64,000 nucleotides of DNA from an uncultured Arcobacter sp. (GTDB taxonomy: Bacteria; Campylobacterota; Campylobacteria; Campylobacterales; Arcobacteraceae). Shown piece after piece: positions 36,001 through 42,000 of this stretch; the stretch's first letter is position 1; each line of letters opens with the position of its first letter. Location: NCBI GenBank assembly GCA_965140705.1, contig OZ223300.1, positions 64,001 through 128,000 on the forward strand, written 5' to 3'. The position numbers are program-made.

Positions 36001-39000
36001 AACTACTCCTAAAGAAAATGTTACTACTCCTTCAGAAAATATTACACCTCCTAAAATTTTAGAAGATACACCTCTTCTTAATCCTGATAAACCTGAGATT
36101 AATCCTGATATCCCTACAGAGCATACTAGTTTTTCTGGTTTTTCAACACTCGGATATGTTTCTTTTCTAGCACGCTCTAATGGAACTTTTAGTTCTGCTC
36201 AAACTGCAGAAATAGGGTTTAAGGAAAATAATAGCGTTAATAACTACCTGGTGATTGCAAATAACAAAAATATTACTTTTCCGATTCTCTTTTATACAGG
36301 AGATTTTTACTCTGACTCAGAAGAAGAGAATTTTTTAGGCTTGGGAGAATGGCAACATAATGAGGCTATTCCTCAGTATGATAAAGGATATTGGGTTAAA
36401 GGTCTTAAAACTGATACAAGTTATATAAGCAGTTTAATGAATAATGCTTCAAAGACTACCAAATCATTTACTGGTAGTGGTGGCAAGATTAAAGGAACAA
36501 TATTGGAGAATAATAATTCATACGACATTGCTAGTAATTCATTTATGAACTTTAAATTTGATTTTGGTGCAGGGATAAACTCTTTTACAGGGAGTATGAA
36601 ATTATACTATGGCAATAATCAAGACTATACCATAGGGTTTGCTGATGGCAAAATAAATAGTTCAGGTTATTCATCAAAATTAACTCATGGAGGGGAATCT
36701 ATAAATGGAAGCTTACATGGTTCTTTTTTTGGAAGTGGAATAAAAGGATTTGGAGGAAATGTTAACTTTGATGATGGAGAGATACAAGGGACTGCAGTAT
36801 TTATAGGTGAATTTCAATAAAAGAAGCTAAAGCTCAAAGACCATCGCCACTTCATCACAAACTGGGGAAGCTATACATCGTATATAAGCAAACCAGATTT
36901 TGTGTTCAGGTATTTTCTCTTTTAATAGAAATATAGTTTTATCTAAAAATCAATATGAATTTTTTTTCATATTCTATTCATAAAGGCGTCATGTAAAAAC
37001 TATACTATTTCCTAAAATAAAAAAGGAAATATGTGTTAAGTATGTCTCTAAAAGCTTTAAAAGCCAATCCTCTAAAAACAACTTTAATATATATAAGTCT
37101 AATATTTTCAATAACATCTATTTTTCTTATTAGCTCTATTTCAAATGGAGTTATCTCTATGTACTCAAATATGCTAAAAAGTGATGGAGATATTATTATC
37201 ACTCAAGCAAAAATCTCTGATACATTTTTTTCAAATGTAAATATAAAACTAATAAAAGAAATCGAAAAATTAAAAGGTGTACAAAAAACTTCAGCGATAA
37301 TTGTAGGAGCTAGTCCAGTTGAAGAGTTACCAATCGTTGCTGTTTATGGAGTCACTCAAAATAGATTTGATAATTACAAATTAACACAAGGTTCTTATCC
37401 AAAACCAAATGAAGTACTTGTGGGAAAATCTATTTATAACTCACTTTCAAATAAAAAAACTGTACAAATAGCCGATAAAAAGTTCCAAGTATCAGGGGTC
37501 TATAAAAGTAAGATTGGCTTTGAAAATGGAGGAGTTGTTTTAAATATATCTGATGCAAGTGCCATTTTTAATAAAAGTGCTTCAATGCTAATGGTAAATA
37601 GTAAAATTAATACAAATATCAAAGACCTTATCTCAAAAATACAAGCACTAAGTTCTGATATAGAAGTAAAATCAACTCAAAACTTTGTAGATAATTATAA
37701 TCAATTTAAAATCATAAAAACCTCATCAAATCTTATAGGTCTTATCTCATTTTGTATGGGATTACTTGGAATCATTAGTATCATGAGTATAACTATAAAT
37801 CAAAGAAAAACAGAGTTTGGTATCAAAAGAGCCATAGGAATTTCAACTAAAAAAATAATCTTGCAAATCATGAGTGAAAGTACTATTTTAGGAGTTTTTA
37901 GTTTTATAAGTGCCTTTTTTATCTCTTGGATTGCCTTATATTTTATAAGAACCTCATCACTATTTCATGGGTATGTAAATGGTGAGATTTCATCTACATT
38001 GGCTGTTTATTTATTTGGCTGTTCTCTTTCAATGGCAATTTTAGGTTCAATCATTCCAGCATTAAATGCTTCAAAAATCGACCCAATCATTTTAATGCAA
38101 GGAGATAAAATATGATTATCCAAGCTTCAAATATAAACCATGATTATAATGGAGATATTGCATTAAAGAATATTCATTTACAAATAAAAAAAGGTGAATT
38201 TATCTCTTTGATTGGAGAAAGTGGAAGTGGAAAGACAACACTTCTTTCGATATTGTCAACACTTCTTAAACCTAGAAGTGGAGAATTAAACTTTGAAGAG
38301 AGTAATTATGCTGATATTACAAATATAGATAAATTTAGACAAAAAAATATCGGTTTTATTTTTCAATTTCATTATTTGATAAATTATCTAAACAACTTTG
38401 AAAATATAAAATTAGCAAATGAAGCTGCCTCAAATCATGAGATAGAGTATCTTTTAGATTTACTTGATATAAAAAATCTAGCTAAAAAATTTCCAAATGA
38501 GATATCAGGAGGTCAGCGACAAAGAGTAGCTATCGCAAGAGCACTTATAAATACTCCTAAAGTACTTTTTGCTGATGAACCAACAGGAAACTTAGATTCT
38601 AAAAATGCAAAAAAAGTTTTTGAGCTTTTTAGAAAACTATCAAAGGAAGGCATGACGATAGTTGTAGCAACACATAATAAAGAGTTAGCAGAAACTGCTG
38701 ATAGAATTTATGAAGTAAAGGATGGACAACTTGCTTAATTTTAACACTTTTGTAAATAGACAATTTAAAATATCACTTATATTTTTATTTTTGGCACTAT
38801 TTTTTGGAATTTTGTATTCTATAAATTTACTTGGGTACTCTATAAACTCAACTACTTTATTACCATCAAATATACGTTCATTACATATTAGTCTTATCCT
38901 TTATGGTTTTGTTCCCTTGATGCTTTCATATTTGCCTTTTTTGATTATAAATAAAGATGGGGTACAAAGTGAAAAAGGCTTACATTACTTAAATCTATAT

Positions 39001-42000
39001 ACTATTTTTTGGTATATCTTTTTAGTCTTTATGATTAGTTCACTTCTTTTTGGAAATACAAGGGGTTTGGCTTTTTATGATTTTCCTTATGAATTAAACT
39101 TTATACTTGCTATTGCTGGAATTTTTTATATTATTGCTTTATACAAATATATAAAAGCCTATGAGATTATTCCTTTATGGATAAAGGTGTGTTTATGGGT
39201 AGTAGTTATTGCTCCCTTTGCCCTTTTGATTTTGATGAATCCTGTTATTGGGCAAGTTGAAAGTACAATTTCTGGACCACATGGAGATAATACTTTAGGT
39301 ATGAGTTTAGCCTTGATACCTATATATTATCTTATCATCAAACTTCTAAATGTAGGTACGTTTAAAGCTAGATGGAATATTTTGTGGATTATTCCTACAA
39401 TCTTTTATTTTAGTTCTGTTTTATATAGAACTTTTGTAGGACACTTAACATATGACCAAGAGTGGTTTTTCCAATGGCTAACTTTTCTTTATATCCCTAT
39501 TTTATACAGATGGTACAAAGATGCCCAAATTGAAACTTTTGCTAAAAAGGCTCTTCTTATTTCTATACTTGCATTTTTATTTGTAGATGTTGAGGGAAAT
39601 ATTTTATTTATTCCTGAGTTTAGATGGCTTTTTCATAGAAATGATTTAATCGTAGCACACGCTCATGTTGCTATGGGAATTGGGGTATTTTTCATGGTAA
39701 TTGCTATGTTTGTATCATATGTAAAAGAGCTTAAAAAACTCTCTTTTTATATTTTATACTTAGCTGGTCTTTTGGGTATTTTTACAGTTTTAAGTATCTC
39801 TGGATTTATTGAGGCAAATATTATTCATGGAAATATTGATTTTCTATGGGCTCTTAGAAGTATGTTTGGAGTACTTACTTTTTCATCTTTGTTTACTTTT
39901 ATTTCTTGTAAATTTGAACTTACAAATTTACAAAAGTACAATCTTTTTGGAGTATTAGCAGATGGTCTTGGTGGTGTTTTTTTAATACTACTTGCTAGTT
40001 TTATCTATCCACTTTTAGGATTTTCATTTACAGGAACTTATGAATATGTTGTTTTTGCTTTTGTGAGTACCACAGGGATTATTCACTATTTTGCTCTTAG
40101 ATACAAAGAGCATGAGCAAATACTTACAAAAATAACAGTTATAACAAGAGTAATAATAAGTTCAGTCTTTTTTGCTCTTTTTTATAACAAAACACTAGGA
40201 ATAGAAGCACTTATGATTTCTCTATTTGATGTCACTTTTGCCTCTATTTTTTTACTATTTTTTTTAGAAAGAAGAACTCGTTCTTCTCTTTAGAATTTGT
40301 TTCTTTAGTTGGAATTTATTTCCAACGATAAAAGAAAACCATAATATTAAGGTCCCTTTTAAATGGGACATTTAAAAGGAGAACCTATGCCAAAAATAGC
40401 ACTTACACTTTTCATAGCATTTGAACTTTGTTATTACTTGCTTATTGCACAAACAGGTATTGTTGAGTATTTTTCATCAAATATCTTTTTAATAGCTTTT
40501 TTACCTATGGGGGGAGTTATTGGTTCACTATTAAGTTATTATATAAAAATATCAAATCAACAAAAGATAACTATCTTTTTATGTATGCAGTTGATTTTGA
40601 CATTTTTTTATCCAGACTTTTCAAGTTTTGAACTCTTTTTATTAGGAATTAGTGTTGGAGCTTTGGCACCATTACTTATAAATGAACTAAAAAAAGCAAG
40701 CATTATTGAATTAGGATTTGCTTTATCTATCTCATATGGAGTTGGAACTTTATTATTTAACTATGATGTTTCAAAAAGAGAGTTTATTGGAGTGGCTTTT
40801 ACTTTAATAGCCCTACTTTGTTCAACACAACTTCCAAAATTAAAAGAGATAAAAACAAATAATTCTATTGAATCATACTCTTTGTTTATCATGGTTTTAT
40901 GGATATTTTTAGATTCTGCACTTTTTGAAACCCTATCAAGGGATGTAAGTATTCCTATTTGGAGAGGTGGATATACTTTTGAAATAGTTATATTCCATAT
41001 TTTAGGTGTAATTGCAGCTTTAAAATTCAATATACAAAAACTTGAAAAAGAGTTATTTATAGTGATACTTTTTGCACTTTCTTATCTATTTTATTTCTTG
41101 CAAGAGCCACTTTTATTATCTATTGTTTATCCTTTTGTAATCTCTTATTATAATGTGACTATTTTACAATCACTTCTAAAAAAAGATTTAAAAGTACTAG
41201 CAATTTATATGGTTTTTATAGGATGGATAGCATCTGGAGCTGGCTTATTTATAGCCTTAGAAAATATTATTCTTTTTGTTCCAATTATATTTTTAATCTC
41301 ACTAATAAAAGTTTTAAATTCACAAGATACAATTCAATCAAAGGAGAAAGAATGTTTAAATTAGTTTTAGTTTTATTGTTTGCATTAATTGCAAATGCCA
41401 ATGAGTTGAAGTTGCTTGATGGCCAAATTCAAGCCCACACAGAAGTTTTTGGAGATAGTACTATTGATCCACAAACAAAAGATATAATAACAAAGGTACA
41501 AAAAGGTGATTCAATAGAATCAATAAGTGGAGAATTTATTATCAACTCTTCTACTCTTACAAGTGATAATAAAGACAGAGATAAACACATGTATGAAGTT
41601 TTGAAATCTTCTGTTAGTCCAAAAATTTCATTTACTATAATAGCAATTGAAAAAGCAGGAGACAAATATAAAATAACAGGTAATTTGAAAATGAATAAAA
41701 TGACCCATCAAATTACAACATTGGCAACTATAACTCAAAATGATAAAATAAACATAAATGGAGATTTTTCAATAAATCTTACAGATTTTGACTTAGAGCC
41801 ACCAACAATGTTTTTTCTAACAGTTAGAAATAAGATAGATATAAAATATAATTTTGACTTTGACAAAGGAATGTAGATGTTAAAAAAACTTTTATTTTTA
41901 CCCCTATTTGCTATTATTTTATATGCAAATAGTTTTGAGGTAAATCAGAACATAGGAACTTTTTCATTACCAAATCAATTTGATAAAAAACAGACAATAG

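Follow-up and report, generated by a model that had tools for sequence, protein, structure and literature searches.

A divergent haem-copper oxidase subunit I homologue without the CuB His-His pair in a proposed cell-envelope module of Arcobacter

Within a 64,000-nucleotide stretch of DNA from an uncultured Arcobacter sp. (the window), the gene at 38722–40293 on the forward strand encodes a homologue of haem-copper oxidase (HCO) subunit I that has no CuB His-His pair, here termed HCOL. Judged from its sequence, HCOL retains the half of the HCO scaffold that binds haem, whereas the half for copper or non-haem iron is gone. The best explanation as a whole, to which we give about an even chance, is that HCOL is a copper-less di-haem cytochrome belonging to an inducible envelope redox/lipid module, and the interpretation in the initial annotation is partly supported.

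The ORF listing gives 523 aa from ATG 38722; an alternative TTG start at 38731 yields a 520-aa form, which defines the residue numbering used here. Position 38722 is probably the true start, since the resulting N-terminus (MDN...) resembles that of HCOL relatives. The annotated ORF is real, and the gene is under purifying selection, with dN/dS values of 0.08–0.23 in 10 pairs (dS is above 1 in five). Two true CcoN genes are present in the same genome besides HCOL.

Pfam COX1 matches HCOL at E 8.7e-4, as annotated, with residues 14–360 aligned to profile positions 9–404 of 436; the score of 18.7 bits is under the cut-off of 34.8 bits, and the NCBIfam search gave no row. Among 7999 scored candidates, 565 proteins are related to HCOL at E ≤ 1e-3, and the matches listed (120 of 565) are 66–97% identical and 457–538 aa long, reproducing the earlier figures. 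Conservation was assessed in 131 non-redundant sequences (86 plus 45 added, leaving out three with coverage under 90% and 30 duplicates), which reach down to 37% identity.

We obtained an AF2 model of HCOL with a pLDDT of 85.1 and a pTM of 0.85, an improvement on the earlier model (78.9 and 0.77). The HCO catalytic-subunit fold was found again: all 50 Foldseek rows listed are HCO or NO-reductase chains, and the best of these are cbb3 (9g83_t at 2.8e-5, 3mk7_A) and cNOR (4xyd_A, TMt 0.64). In hhalign, 48 HCOL family members align with 45 HCO subunits of Campylobacterota genomes at 97.3% (E 1.8e-11, 376 columns), and with the NOR-like group alone at 22.5%. As before, a PDB profile search found no HCO, here at E ≤ 10. 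Helices 1–12 (residues 1–393) form the HCO core, followed by four extra C-terminal helices (399–510) bearing the invariant residues Y403, D411, Y437, H452, R473 and D500. HCOL is almost certainly a true, by homology, but extremely divergent member of the HCO subunit I superfamily, within which cbb3 CcoN and NorB are the nearest branch.

Residues were mapped by hhalign; the cbb3 numbers come from aligning the genome's own CcoN with 3mk7_A. HCOL residues H52, H310 and H312 correspond to H60, H345 and H347, the three cbb3 haem ligands, in support of the annotated helix-II His and helix-X HxH haem-ligand positions, and H302, R49 and R376 align with H337, R57 and R437. All six are invariant or nearly so in the 131 sequences, and in the AF2 model H52 and H312 each lie 7 residues from the periplasmic end of their own helix. 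HCOL is predicted, with good likelihood, to bind two haems. These would be b-type and near the periplasmic face, one between H52 (helix II) and H312 (helix X) and the other on H310, with R49, H302 and R376 holding the propionates in the manner of their cbb3 equivalents. The Ca-site Glu is gone (cbb3 E122 aligns with A114) and the second propionate Arg (R422 in the genome's own CcoN) has no counterpart in HCOL by alignment; the haem packing must thus differ from that of cbb3.

It is highly improbable that HCOL binds no cofactor and retains the HCO fold solely as a scaffold or channel in the membrane, for instance to form the substrate path of the ABC/MFS machinery, with its conserved histidines in structural or proton-relay roles. 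The COX1 score of only 18.7 bits would fit such a protein, as would the loss of half of the HCO-wide conserved columns and the buried invariant D411, R473 and D500 of the extra four-helix domain, which resemble a transport path. However, exactly the three axial ligands and the R57, H337 and R437 equivalents are the residues kept invariant across the 131 sequences, down to 37% identity, a pattern that is difficult to account for unless haem is bound.

Six histidines had been described as invariant. Five of them (H52, H302, H310, H312 and H452) are present in 131/131 sequences, whereas H184 is found in 130/131, with Arg in its place in P0130. Nor do H302 and H452 seem likely to complete an unusual metal site, as had been considered: H302 aligns with cbb3 H337 and needs no special role, and H452 cannot easily take part in a site beside the haems because it lies within the extra C-terminal helices, near the cytoplasmic end of its helix in the AF2 model.

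The other half of the scaffold is different. The cbb3 pair H257/H258 falls on G237/H238 in hhalign, with His in only 14 of 86 sequences, and from residue 205 to 300 no column has His in more than 59/131. The family has no conserved helix-VII His-His pair, so that alignment and conservation both support the annotated loss. H184, in turn, had been put forward as the first CuB ligand, equivalent to cbb3 H207. This assignment is not supported, since hhalign places the WWxGH motif (W203/W204/H207), absent from HCOL, in a gap adjoining H184, helices V–VIII alone give no profile signal against HCO (1.2%), one member has Arg, and H184 lies outside helix VI in the AF2 model, in a loop of pLDDT under 50 that precedes the helix start (residue 188) by four residues. 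HCOL is very likely without a canonical binuclear centre, and would therefore not be an O2- or NO-reducing respiratory enzyme.

The CuB half nevertheless has its own nearly or fully invariant residues: H184, D186, E177, M191, Y226, R233 and E244. A two-metal catalytic centre could persist if H184 and D186 (both in the invariant GPHGDN loop), E177, E244, Y226 and perhaps M191 held Fe, Cu or Mn above the haem of H310; HCOL would then be an unrecognised NO, O2 or peroxide reductase. D186, E244 and Y226 are present in 131/131 sequences, H184 in 130/131 and E177 in 127/131; H184 is 20 residues from a Lys that is conserved where helix VI ends on the cytoplasmic side, compared with 21 from H207 to K228 in cbb3; and Y226 is one column off the cbb3 cross-link Tyr in hhalign. 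Against this, the H184 placement is as described above, no His, Cys or further carboxylate pair substitutes for H257/H258 (the nearest invariant residue, R233, is cationic), and the operon has no NorQD-, CcoGHIS- or CcoA-like metal-insertion genes. We consider such a centre unlikely. Replacement of one active-site His does have a precedent in gNOR, the first family of this kind according to a 2024 HCO survey (PMC11214002). gNOR and the other new HCO families of that survey, like HCOL, depart from the canonical active site, but gNOR replaces one histidine, whereas HCOL is missing two or more of the three that bind CuB. The survey tables (supplement files 3, 5 and 7) contain no class for HCOL; four species with HCOL are entered there with only C=1, and their further counts for A, cNOR or gNOR are consistent with ordinary genes.

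Compared with cbb3 CcoN (a C-family HCO; e.g., PDB 3mk7), HCOL lacks the helix-VII His-His pair, the helix-VI WWxGH motif and Glu at the E122 column, has shorter loops and four additional C-terminal helices, and is encoded in an operon without CcoO, CcoP or CcoQ genes. In comparison with NorB (cytochrome c-dependent NO reductase; PDB 3o0r, 4xyd), the three FeB histidines and one Glu are not recognisable, and NorC and NorQD genes do not accompany HCOL.

Gene order was compared in 80 close and 78 distant HCOL loci (30 loci are common to both sets); all features below are on the forward strand. The annotated order of ABC pair, polytopic protein and YceI protein holds, with the correction that the polytopic protein has a compact MFS fold. 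The operon opens with a MacB/FtsX-type ABC permease with a periplasmic core domain (37033–38115, 360 aa; Pfam FtsX 2.2e-14, MacB_PCD 3.7e-14), whose nearest solved chains are 5xu1_M (1.5e-10) and MacB 5nik_J and which is next to HCOL in 71/80 and 73/78 loci. The ABC ATPase (38112–38738, 208 aa; Pfam ABC_tran 2.5e-35; NCBIfam LolD/FtsE/DevA-like, under cut-offs) shares 4 nt with the permease gene and 8–17 nt with the HCOL gene, and lies directly upstream of HCOL in 76/80 and 77/78 loci, even where other genes have moved. Downstream, the 12-helix MFS-fold protein (40387–41364, 325 aa, ORF start at 40363 possible; AF2 pLDDT 90.6) has no family in Pfam or NCBIfam and matches the MFS transporters VMAT2, ENT1, G6PT, NorA and FLVCR in Foldseek (E ~5e-5 to 7e-4, TM 0.5–0.65); its gene is found in 79/80 and 75/78 loci. 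The periplasmic YceI-family lipocalin (41352–41876, 174 aa with signal peptide; Pfam YceI 8e-16; 76/80 and 74/78 loci) has a family profile matching E. coli YceI 1y0g_A (2e-12), PA0423, the C. jejuni polyisoprenoid-binding protein 5w2x and TT1927b. A secreted 150-aa protein with 0 Cys and no Pfam family (41877–42329; 62/80 and 64/78 loci) probably has a thioredoxin-like (YtfJ/AhpC-TSA-like) fold; as a lead only, its Atlas features are nearest to own-phylum clusters, then to YtfJ_HI0045 and AhpC-TSA clusters at 0.90.

The remaining genes are accessory. A YaeI/LpxG-like metallophosphoesterase (42326–43057, 243 aa; Pfam Metallophos 3.2e-14; NCBIfam YaeI 9e-24, under cut-off) is present in 58/80 and 27/78 loci; in the distant loci L074, L078 and L080, a metallo-beta-lactamase-fold hydrolase adjoins the module in its stead. 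An OmpR-family response regulator (43062–43730) and a sensor kinase (43720–45090), together 43062–45090, are of the heavy-metal (CusRS/CopRS/HprRS-like) type by NCBIfam, with TIGR01387 at 7e-75 (251 bits, cut-off 279) and TIGR01386 at 4.6e-68 (230 bits, cut-off 293), both below cut-off. This two-component system is adjacent in ~60/80 close and only 27–34/78 distant loci; like the phosphoesterase, it is missing from most of the distant set.

An operator-like element precedes the operon at 36953–36992: an ATATGAA half-site followed by TTCATA-N5-TTCATA-N5-GTCAT, in which the direct repeats are spaced by 11 bp. The element and a -35-like hexamer overlap, and a -10-like hexamer, TATACT, follows at 37001–37006. 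Of 62 related loci that share this gene order, 58 have TTCATA-N5-TTCATA (≤2 mismatches) ~55–80 nt before the FtsX-type gene, versus 7/62 shuffled controls. We infer that the operon's response regulator binds this operator. The three-repeat form occurs at only three places in the whole 3.1-Mb genome, and its sole other intergenic copy precedes the gene of a mono-haem cytochrome c, a CxxCH protein (Pfam Haem_bd 1.8e-36) with a TM anchor in the membrane. None of the 14 proteins whose genes lie between 31510 and 46722 has a CxxCH motif; given this second operator-bearing gene, the annotated absence of a c-type cytochrome partner thus holds only for the operon itself. Close orthologues of this cytochrome occur in only 8/121 sampled genomes, seven of which hold HCOL, and it is absent from 43 other HCOL-positive genomes.

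HCOL had been called conserved in Arcobacteraceae, which is too simple: its distribution is patchy, with 50 of 121 genomes sampled from its own family, and it also occurs in Sulfurimonas, Sulfuricurvum, Sulfurovum, Sulfurospirillum and Helicobacteraceae MAGs, reaching Sulfurimonadaceae. HCOL and the MFS-fold gene are both present in 49 of the 121 genomes and both missing from 70, with one discordant genome each way. HCOL, the ABC pair, the MFS-like protein, YceI and the redoxin-fold protein are a module gained and lost as a unit. Within it, HCOL is genetically linked most tightly not to YceI but to the ABC pair, with overlapping genes that stay together in rearranged loci.

This link could also mean that HCOL is a non-redox haem-binding accessory of the transporter (a haem sink, hand-over station or haem/gas sensor). 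In that case, haem or porphyrin would be exported or moved elsewhere by the MacB-type pair, or else the two-component system would receive a haem, NO or O2 signal from the module. The haem exporter HrtBA is itself a MacB-type transporter, ABC and HCOL genes stay adjacent even with MFS-like and YceI genes moved, and the sole other operator-bearing gene encodes a haem protein. We find this quite unlikely: the permease shows no specific HrtB similarity (5xu1_M and MacB are nearer), the invariant propionate-binding residues and bis-His site suggest a permanent cofactor rather than one in transit, and YceI proteins, by the names of the matched PDB molecules, bind isoprenoid lipids, not haem.

In type VII ABC systems (MacB/LolCDE/FtsEX/HrtBA), as in the HCOL module, the ATPase is a separate protein and the four-TM permease carries a periplasmic core domain. 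By analogy with LolCDE-LolA, the extractor could hand lipid to YceI as periplasmic carrier. Unlike those systems, the module has no adaptor, TolC genes or lipoprotein-sorting context, and an HCO-like protein is its obligatory neighbour; our literature search found no description of such a type VII system, and we know of none.

For the di-haem cytochrome, we tentatively propose an envelope redox/lipid role, which is possible but still doubtful. HCOL, the fixed partner of the MacB-type (mechanotransmission) ABC pair, would belong to a module for inducible envelope protection, driven by a promoter with OmpR-type TTCATA direct repeats and probably controlled by the CusRS/HprRS-like system at the operon end. 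It might pass electrons at the periplasmic face from menaquinol or the co-regulated membrane-anchored cytochrome c to a lipophilic substrate (an isoprenoid quinone or oxidised lipid, for instance), which the ABC extractor would lift from the membrane and the YceI lipocalin would carry. In function, the module may thus be analogous to the lipid-peroxyl detoxification pair LcoA (a cytochrome b561) and BcnA (a YceI lipocalin). Both haems of an HCO sit at equal depth in the membrane; HCOL therefore cannot carry electrons across it as cytochrome b561 does, and the analogy is loose. In the LcoA-BcnA case, a YceI lipocalin paired to a di-haem membrane cytochrome counters lipid peroxidation (PMC9113575), and in both cases a periplasmic YceI lipocalin is genetically tied to an integral-membrane cytochrome, predicted to be di-haem for HCOL. 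LcoA, however, has an unrelated fold and haems that span the membrane, whereas those of HCOL would sit side by side near one face, and the HCOL module adds the MacB-type ABC pair, MFS-like and redoxin-fold proteins. By this analogy, a role in envelope stress is plausible. Since HCOL has lost the copper site and is consistently accompanied by an ABC transporter and a lipid-carrier protein, it is probably part of an undescribed cell-envelope system rather than a respiratory enzyme.

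The gene for HCOL, a divergent homologue of subunit I of the heme-copper oxidoreductases (HCOs) that does not have the CuB His-His pair, lies at window positions 38722–40293 (+), where the ORF listing gives an ATG start and a product of 523 aa. The initial annotation had used a 520-aa form (P0001, 38731–40293), to which all residue numbers here refer and which starts with TTG; since the N-terminus encoded after the ATG (MDN...) resembles those of relatives, 38722 is the likelier start. The gene start overlaps the upstream ABC ATPase gene, which stops at 38738. COX1 (PF00115) is the sole Pfam match of HCOL (E 8.7e-4, residues 14–360), with a score of 18.7 bits that misses the gathering cut-off of 34.8, and an NCBIfam search gave no match at all. 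Two ordinary ccoN genes are present elsewhere in the same genome.

An AlphaFold2 model calculated from a 48-sequence alignment (pLDDT 85.1, pTM 0.85) contains 16 helices and displays the 12-helix subunit-I fold. Every one of the 50 Foldseek matches listed for this model is an entry for an oxidase or a NO reductase, and cbb3 and cNOR rank first. As a reference, 45 HCO subunits encoded in Campylobacterota genomes were aligned, covering CcoN, NOR-like and about 560-aa forms; hhalign matches the HCOL family to this alignment with a probability of 97.3% (E 1.8e-11, 376 columns), compared with 40.1%, 22.5% and 2.9% for the CcoN, NOR-like and 560-aa groups taken singly. The value of 1.3% reported in the initial annotation is thus a matter of template depth, and its claim that HCOL is an HCO subunit-I homologue is upheld by fold, structural matches and profile alignment alike; we regard this homology as firm. 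A PDB sequence-profile search with the HCOL family retrieved no HCO, and its only rows were two chance matches to Nta1p (E 0.54). A second polytopic family of about 411 aa, found in two other Campylobacterota genomes (L128:578–1813 and L129, in G011 and G015), also shows weak COX1 matches (E 2e-4 and 5.5e-4). Its two members share 34.5% identity and have no blastp similarity to HCOL; they may represent a second degenerate HCO-like family.

To map ligands, those columns in which at least 90% of the 45 HCO subunits agree were projected onto the HCOL family, with cbb3 numbers taken from an alignment of the organism's own CcoN with 3mk7_A and conservation counted over 131 non-redundant HCOL sequences. 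The roles given for the mapped cbb3 residues are those of the cbb3 structure literature. The heme side of the active site is retained: H60, H345, H347, H337, R57 and R437 of cbb3 correspond to H52, H310, H312, H302, R49 and R376 of HCOL. H52 and H312, which align with the bis-His ligands of the low-spin heme (the helix II histidine H60 and the second histidine of the helix X HxH motif, H347), are present in 131/131 sequences, as is H310, the counterpart of the proximal ligand of the high-spin heme (H345, the first histidine of HxH); all three are predicted ligands. In the model, H52 and H312 are each located seven residues from the periplasmic end of their helix, a depth that would fit what is expected of a bis-His pair. 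Six invariant histidines had been proposed for the family, and five of them (H52, H302, H310, H312 and H452) are indeed found in every sequence, the exception being H184, which is histidine in 130/131.

The canonical copper side appears to be lost. The helix VII pair H257/H258 aligns with G237/H238 of HCOL, and histidine occurs there in only 14/86 sequences. Across residues 205–300, no column has histidine in more than 59 of the 131 sequences. Both results agree with the earlier claim that the CuB/FeB His-His pair is missing. W203, W204 and H207 of cbb3 fall in a gap of the HCOL family, and so does the HCO arginine of the loop between helices XI and XII. E122 of the Pseudomonas stutzeri cbb3, the calcium-site glutamate, aligns with A114, and an invariant aspartate (D117) follows three residues on. 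Invariant Y226 is placed by hhalign one column off Y251, the cross-linked tyrosine of helix VII.

H184 had been assigned as the first CuB ligand. The hhalign alignment has an indel directly beside H184 and leaves H207 in a gap. With helices V–VIII alone, the probability is 1.2% and the aligned part is confined to the cytoplasmic end of helix VI, so that H184 could not be placed. In the model, residues 176–187 form a loop of low confidence (pLDDT under 50), and the first residue of helix VI is 188. The distance to the conserved lysine at the inner end of helix VI does favour equivalence, with 20 residues from H184 compared with 21 in cbb3. Taken as a whole, the evidence speaks against treating H184 as an established CuB ligand, and it is at most a candidate for this role.

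Invariant polar residues (D186, T188, S192, Y226, R233, Y241, E244, W245, D286, N290, R298 and D305) are densely grouped where helices VI–X end on the periplasmic side, and may belong to a distal pocket, to a different metal site or to the propionate network. An extra domain holds H452, on helix 14 toward its cytoplasmic end, and invariant D411, R473 and D500, which are buried according to the model.

A word-indexed search found 565 proteins related to HCOL at E ≤ 1e-3, and the 120 matches listed are 66–97% identical. When 1.84 billion representatives were searched exhaustively with phmmer, all 64 matches proved to be members of the family or fragments of them, with identities as low as 39%, and no canonical HCO was matched at E ≤ 1e-3. 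HCOL relatives are encoded at 210 loci of species-representative genomes; the 80 loci kept come from Arcobacteraceae, Sulfurimonas, Sulfuricurvum, Sulfurospirillum and Helicobacteraceae MAGs. When the scan was repeated from the most distant members, 107 loci were obtained, and the 80 kept this time add Sulfurovum and S. cavolei. Within the taxonomic family of the window, HCOL is present in 50/121 sampled genomes (45/103 of the high-quality ones), in 12/22 genera and in all seven genomes of its own genus, and it is single-copy in complete assemblies. With dN/dS values of 0.08–0.23 against 10 relatives, the HCOL branch is under purifying selection. No fused or longer forms were found in a search that constitutes weak evidence on this point.

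Two relatives stem from MAGs whose records give no more than 'Proteobacteria bacterium' (L153, GC 53%) and 'Pseudomonadota bacterium' (L170). A 91-kb contig labelled 'Candidatus Paceibacteria bacterium' (L027, JBGSBO010000002.1) carries the whole module described below; its HCOL is 67% identical to that of the window and its neighbouring genes are Aliarcobacter-like, and it is probably mis-binned. Such labels are not enough to place the family in a second phylum, and a cluster look-up returned no taxa.

HCOL is the third of nine tightly packed genes on one strand (37033–45090), which encode a MacB/FtsX permease, an ABC ATPase, HCOL, a polytopic MFS-like protein, a YceI protein, a secreted 150-aa protein, a metallophosphoesterase, an OmpR-type regulator and a heavy-metal-type sensor kinase. 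The permease combines an FtsX domain (PF02687) with a MacB periplasmic core domain (PF12704) and, together with the ATPase (PF00005), forms a MacB-type (type VII) ABC pair; an HrtB-like identity of the permease was considered and was not seen among solved chains. The polytopic protein beside HCOL is predicted to adopt a compact 12-helix MFS transporter fold (pLDDT 90.6), and an Atlas look-up returned nothing beyond its own cluster and unnamed clusters. The YceI gene matches Pfam YceI at 8e-16. The 150-aa protein has no cysteine and resembles a YtfJ/AhpC-type redoxin fold by language-model features only.

We counted these genes near HCOL in the first set of 80 loci and in a second, distant-seeded set of 78 (within 6.5 kb), with 30 loci common to both; in the first set, contig ends truncate some loci and a number of the regulator matches are paralogues. 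The MFS-like gene is present at 79/80 and 75/78 loci, the ATPase gene at 76/80 and 77/78, the YceI gene at 76/80 and 74/78, the permease gene at 71/80 and 73/78, and the gene for the 150-aa protein at 62/80 and 64/78. The corresponding counts are 61/80 and 27/78 for the regulator, 60/80 and 34/78 for the kinase, and 58/80 and 27/78 for the phosphoesterase. At rearranged loci, permease, ATPase and HCOL genes remain contiguous, and the MFS-like and YceI genes shift as a unit. Among the 121 genomes of the family, 49 hold both HCOL and the MFS-like gene and 70 hold neither, each gene occurring alone in one genome (both 85% complete). Three distant Sulfuricurvum/Helicobacteraceae loci (L074:8960–9931, L078:9732–10655 and L080:10977–11954) carry a Lactamase_B_2 (metallo-beta-lactamase-fold) hydrolase in place of the calcineurin-type metallophosphoesterase of the window; a phosphoesterase of either fold seems to have been recruited repeatedly beside the module.

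Further gene groups flank the operon. Upstream (32324–36820), the gene for a TPR protein stands before a tandem pair of paralogues, FecR-domain proteins of 498 and 509 aa whose N-termini resemble LapA retention modules; this arrangement occurs in only the two closest of the 80 related loci. Downstream, genes for a tandem-Usp protein and a SulP transporter precede a row for lipid A/envelope remodelling (47635–50264: EptA-type phosphoethanolamine transferase, PAP2 phosphatase and diacylglycerol kinase). A second envelope redox cluster (50344–54626) encodes DUF1924, a di-heme cytochrome c (DHC), a prokaryotic cytochrome b561, a second DHC and an LTXXQ/Spy-like 'Metal_resist' protein, and ends with genes for a response regulator and a sensor kinase.

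Ahead of the permease gene, positions 36953–36992 read ATATGAA, then TTCATA-N5-TTCATA-N5-GTCAT. TTCATA direct repeats with 11-bp spacing (at most two mismatches) occupy the same place in 58/62 loci with this gene order, compared with 7/62 in shuffled controls. A generic promoter/terminator scan was uninformative (45 sites observed versus 53 expected). The three-repeat form occurs at three places in the whole genome, one of them the module promoter. Another, C3:419741 (minus), falls within an oppositely oriented ORF of 695 aa and was taken as chance. At the third place, outside the window, four tandem TTCAT repeats with 11-bp spacing, which match the operator of the operon, are found 45–80 nt upstream of a 149-aa gene (G000:C1:1383861–1384388; L139:2362–2892), which has a MazEF pair divergently upstream. 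The encoded protein is a TM-anchored mono-heme c-type cytochrome, with a TM helix at the N-terminus, a CxxCH motif and a Pfam Haem_bd match (1.8e-36). Close orthologues (at least 69% identity) occur in 8/121 genomes, seven of which also hold HCOL, and TTCATA-type repeats precede seven of the eight orthologue genes. We regard this cytochrome as a lead, a candidate electron donor to HCOL in its own genus; because 43 other HCOL-positive genomes do not have it, it is not a general partner of HCOL.

Whereas cbb3 oxidases have c-type subunits CcoO/CcoP encoded with CcoN, CxxCH is absent from the 14 neighbours of HCOL (31510–46722); at the true ccoN loci of this genome, a 227-aa gene lies directly downstream. 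The FeB site of cNOR and qNOR is made up of three histidines and one glutamate, unlike HCOL with its missing His-His pair, and no NorC-like gene near HCOL or NorC-like domain fused to it was found, the search for fused forms being weak evidence. A 2024 survey (PMC11214002) lists four species with HCOL (A. ellisii, M. halophilus, S. arcachonense and UBA4036 sp002382325) under C = 1 and no extra class, so HCOL appears not to have been counted there. Neither a copper-less HCO family nor the HCOL operon was described in any paper found by our full-text literature searches.

In a study of the YceI lipocalin BcnA and cytochrome b561 LcoA, the two proteins limit membrane lipid peroxidation, and a YceI homologue binds ubiquinone-8 (PMC9113575). 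The HCOL module resembles this pair in that a YceI-family lipocalin gene is linked to the gene of a membrane cytochrome-like protein (76/80 and 74/78 loci), although HCOL matches COX1 and not cytochrome b561 PF01292 (Ni_hydr_CYTB). By analogy, the BcnA–LcoA pair is the nearest functional precedent for the module. The genome has six PF01292 matches and three YceI genes, none adjoining each other. Another redox pairing is seen at its best-scoring YceI gene (163 bits; G000:C1:317600–321085, L130), which adjoins genes for an NADPH-dependent FMN reductase and a pirin.

HCOL is best read as a presumably copper-less, di-heme offshoot of the C-family/NOR branch that would serve a conserved, inducible envelope module around the MacB-type ABC pair and the YceI lipocalin. 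A more specific reading, which we consider unlikely, is that the HCO scaffold was rebuilt as a heme-only catalytic site. R233, Y226, E244 and the H184-x-D186 loop would then form a peroxidase-like distal pocket over the H310 heme, and HCOL would act as a peroxidase within the membrane that is driven by menaquinol or cytochrome c, reducing lipid hydroperoxides or peroxyl radicals presented by the MacB-type extractor and the YceI lipocalin. If true, the oxidase fold would have an enzymatic use not seen before, and the envelope antioxidant machine would likewise be new.

As far as is known, the described HCO families keep six metal-binding histidines. The 2024 survey singles gNOR out as the first family to alter even one, with one active-site histidine replaced (PMC11214002). 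A branch that has kept the heme half and dropped the copper half, is under purifying selection and is locked in a six-gene envelope module would mean that the oxidase scaffold is reusable beyond O2 and NO reduction. The conserved operator makes the inducing signal of the module directly testable, and the module itself offers a handle on YceI lipocalin function, on MacB-type ABC pairs without a TolC partner and on envelope protection in microaerophilic sulfur-oxidising Campylobacterota.
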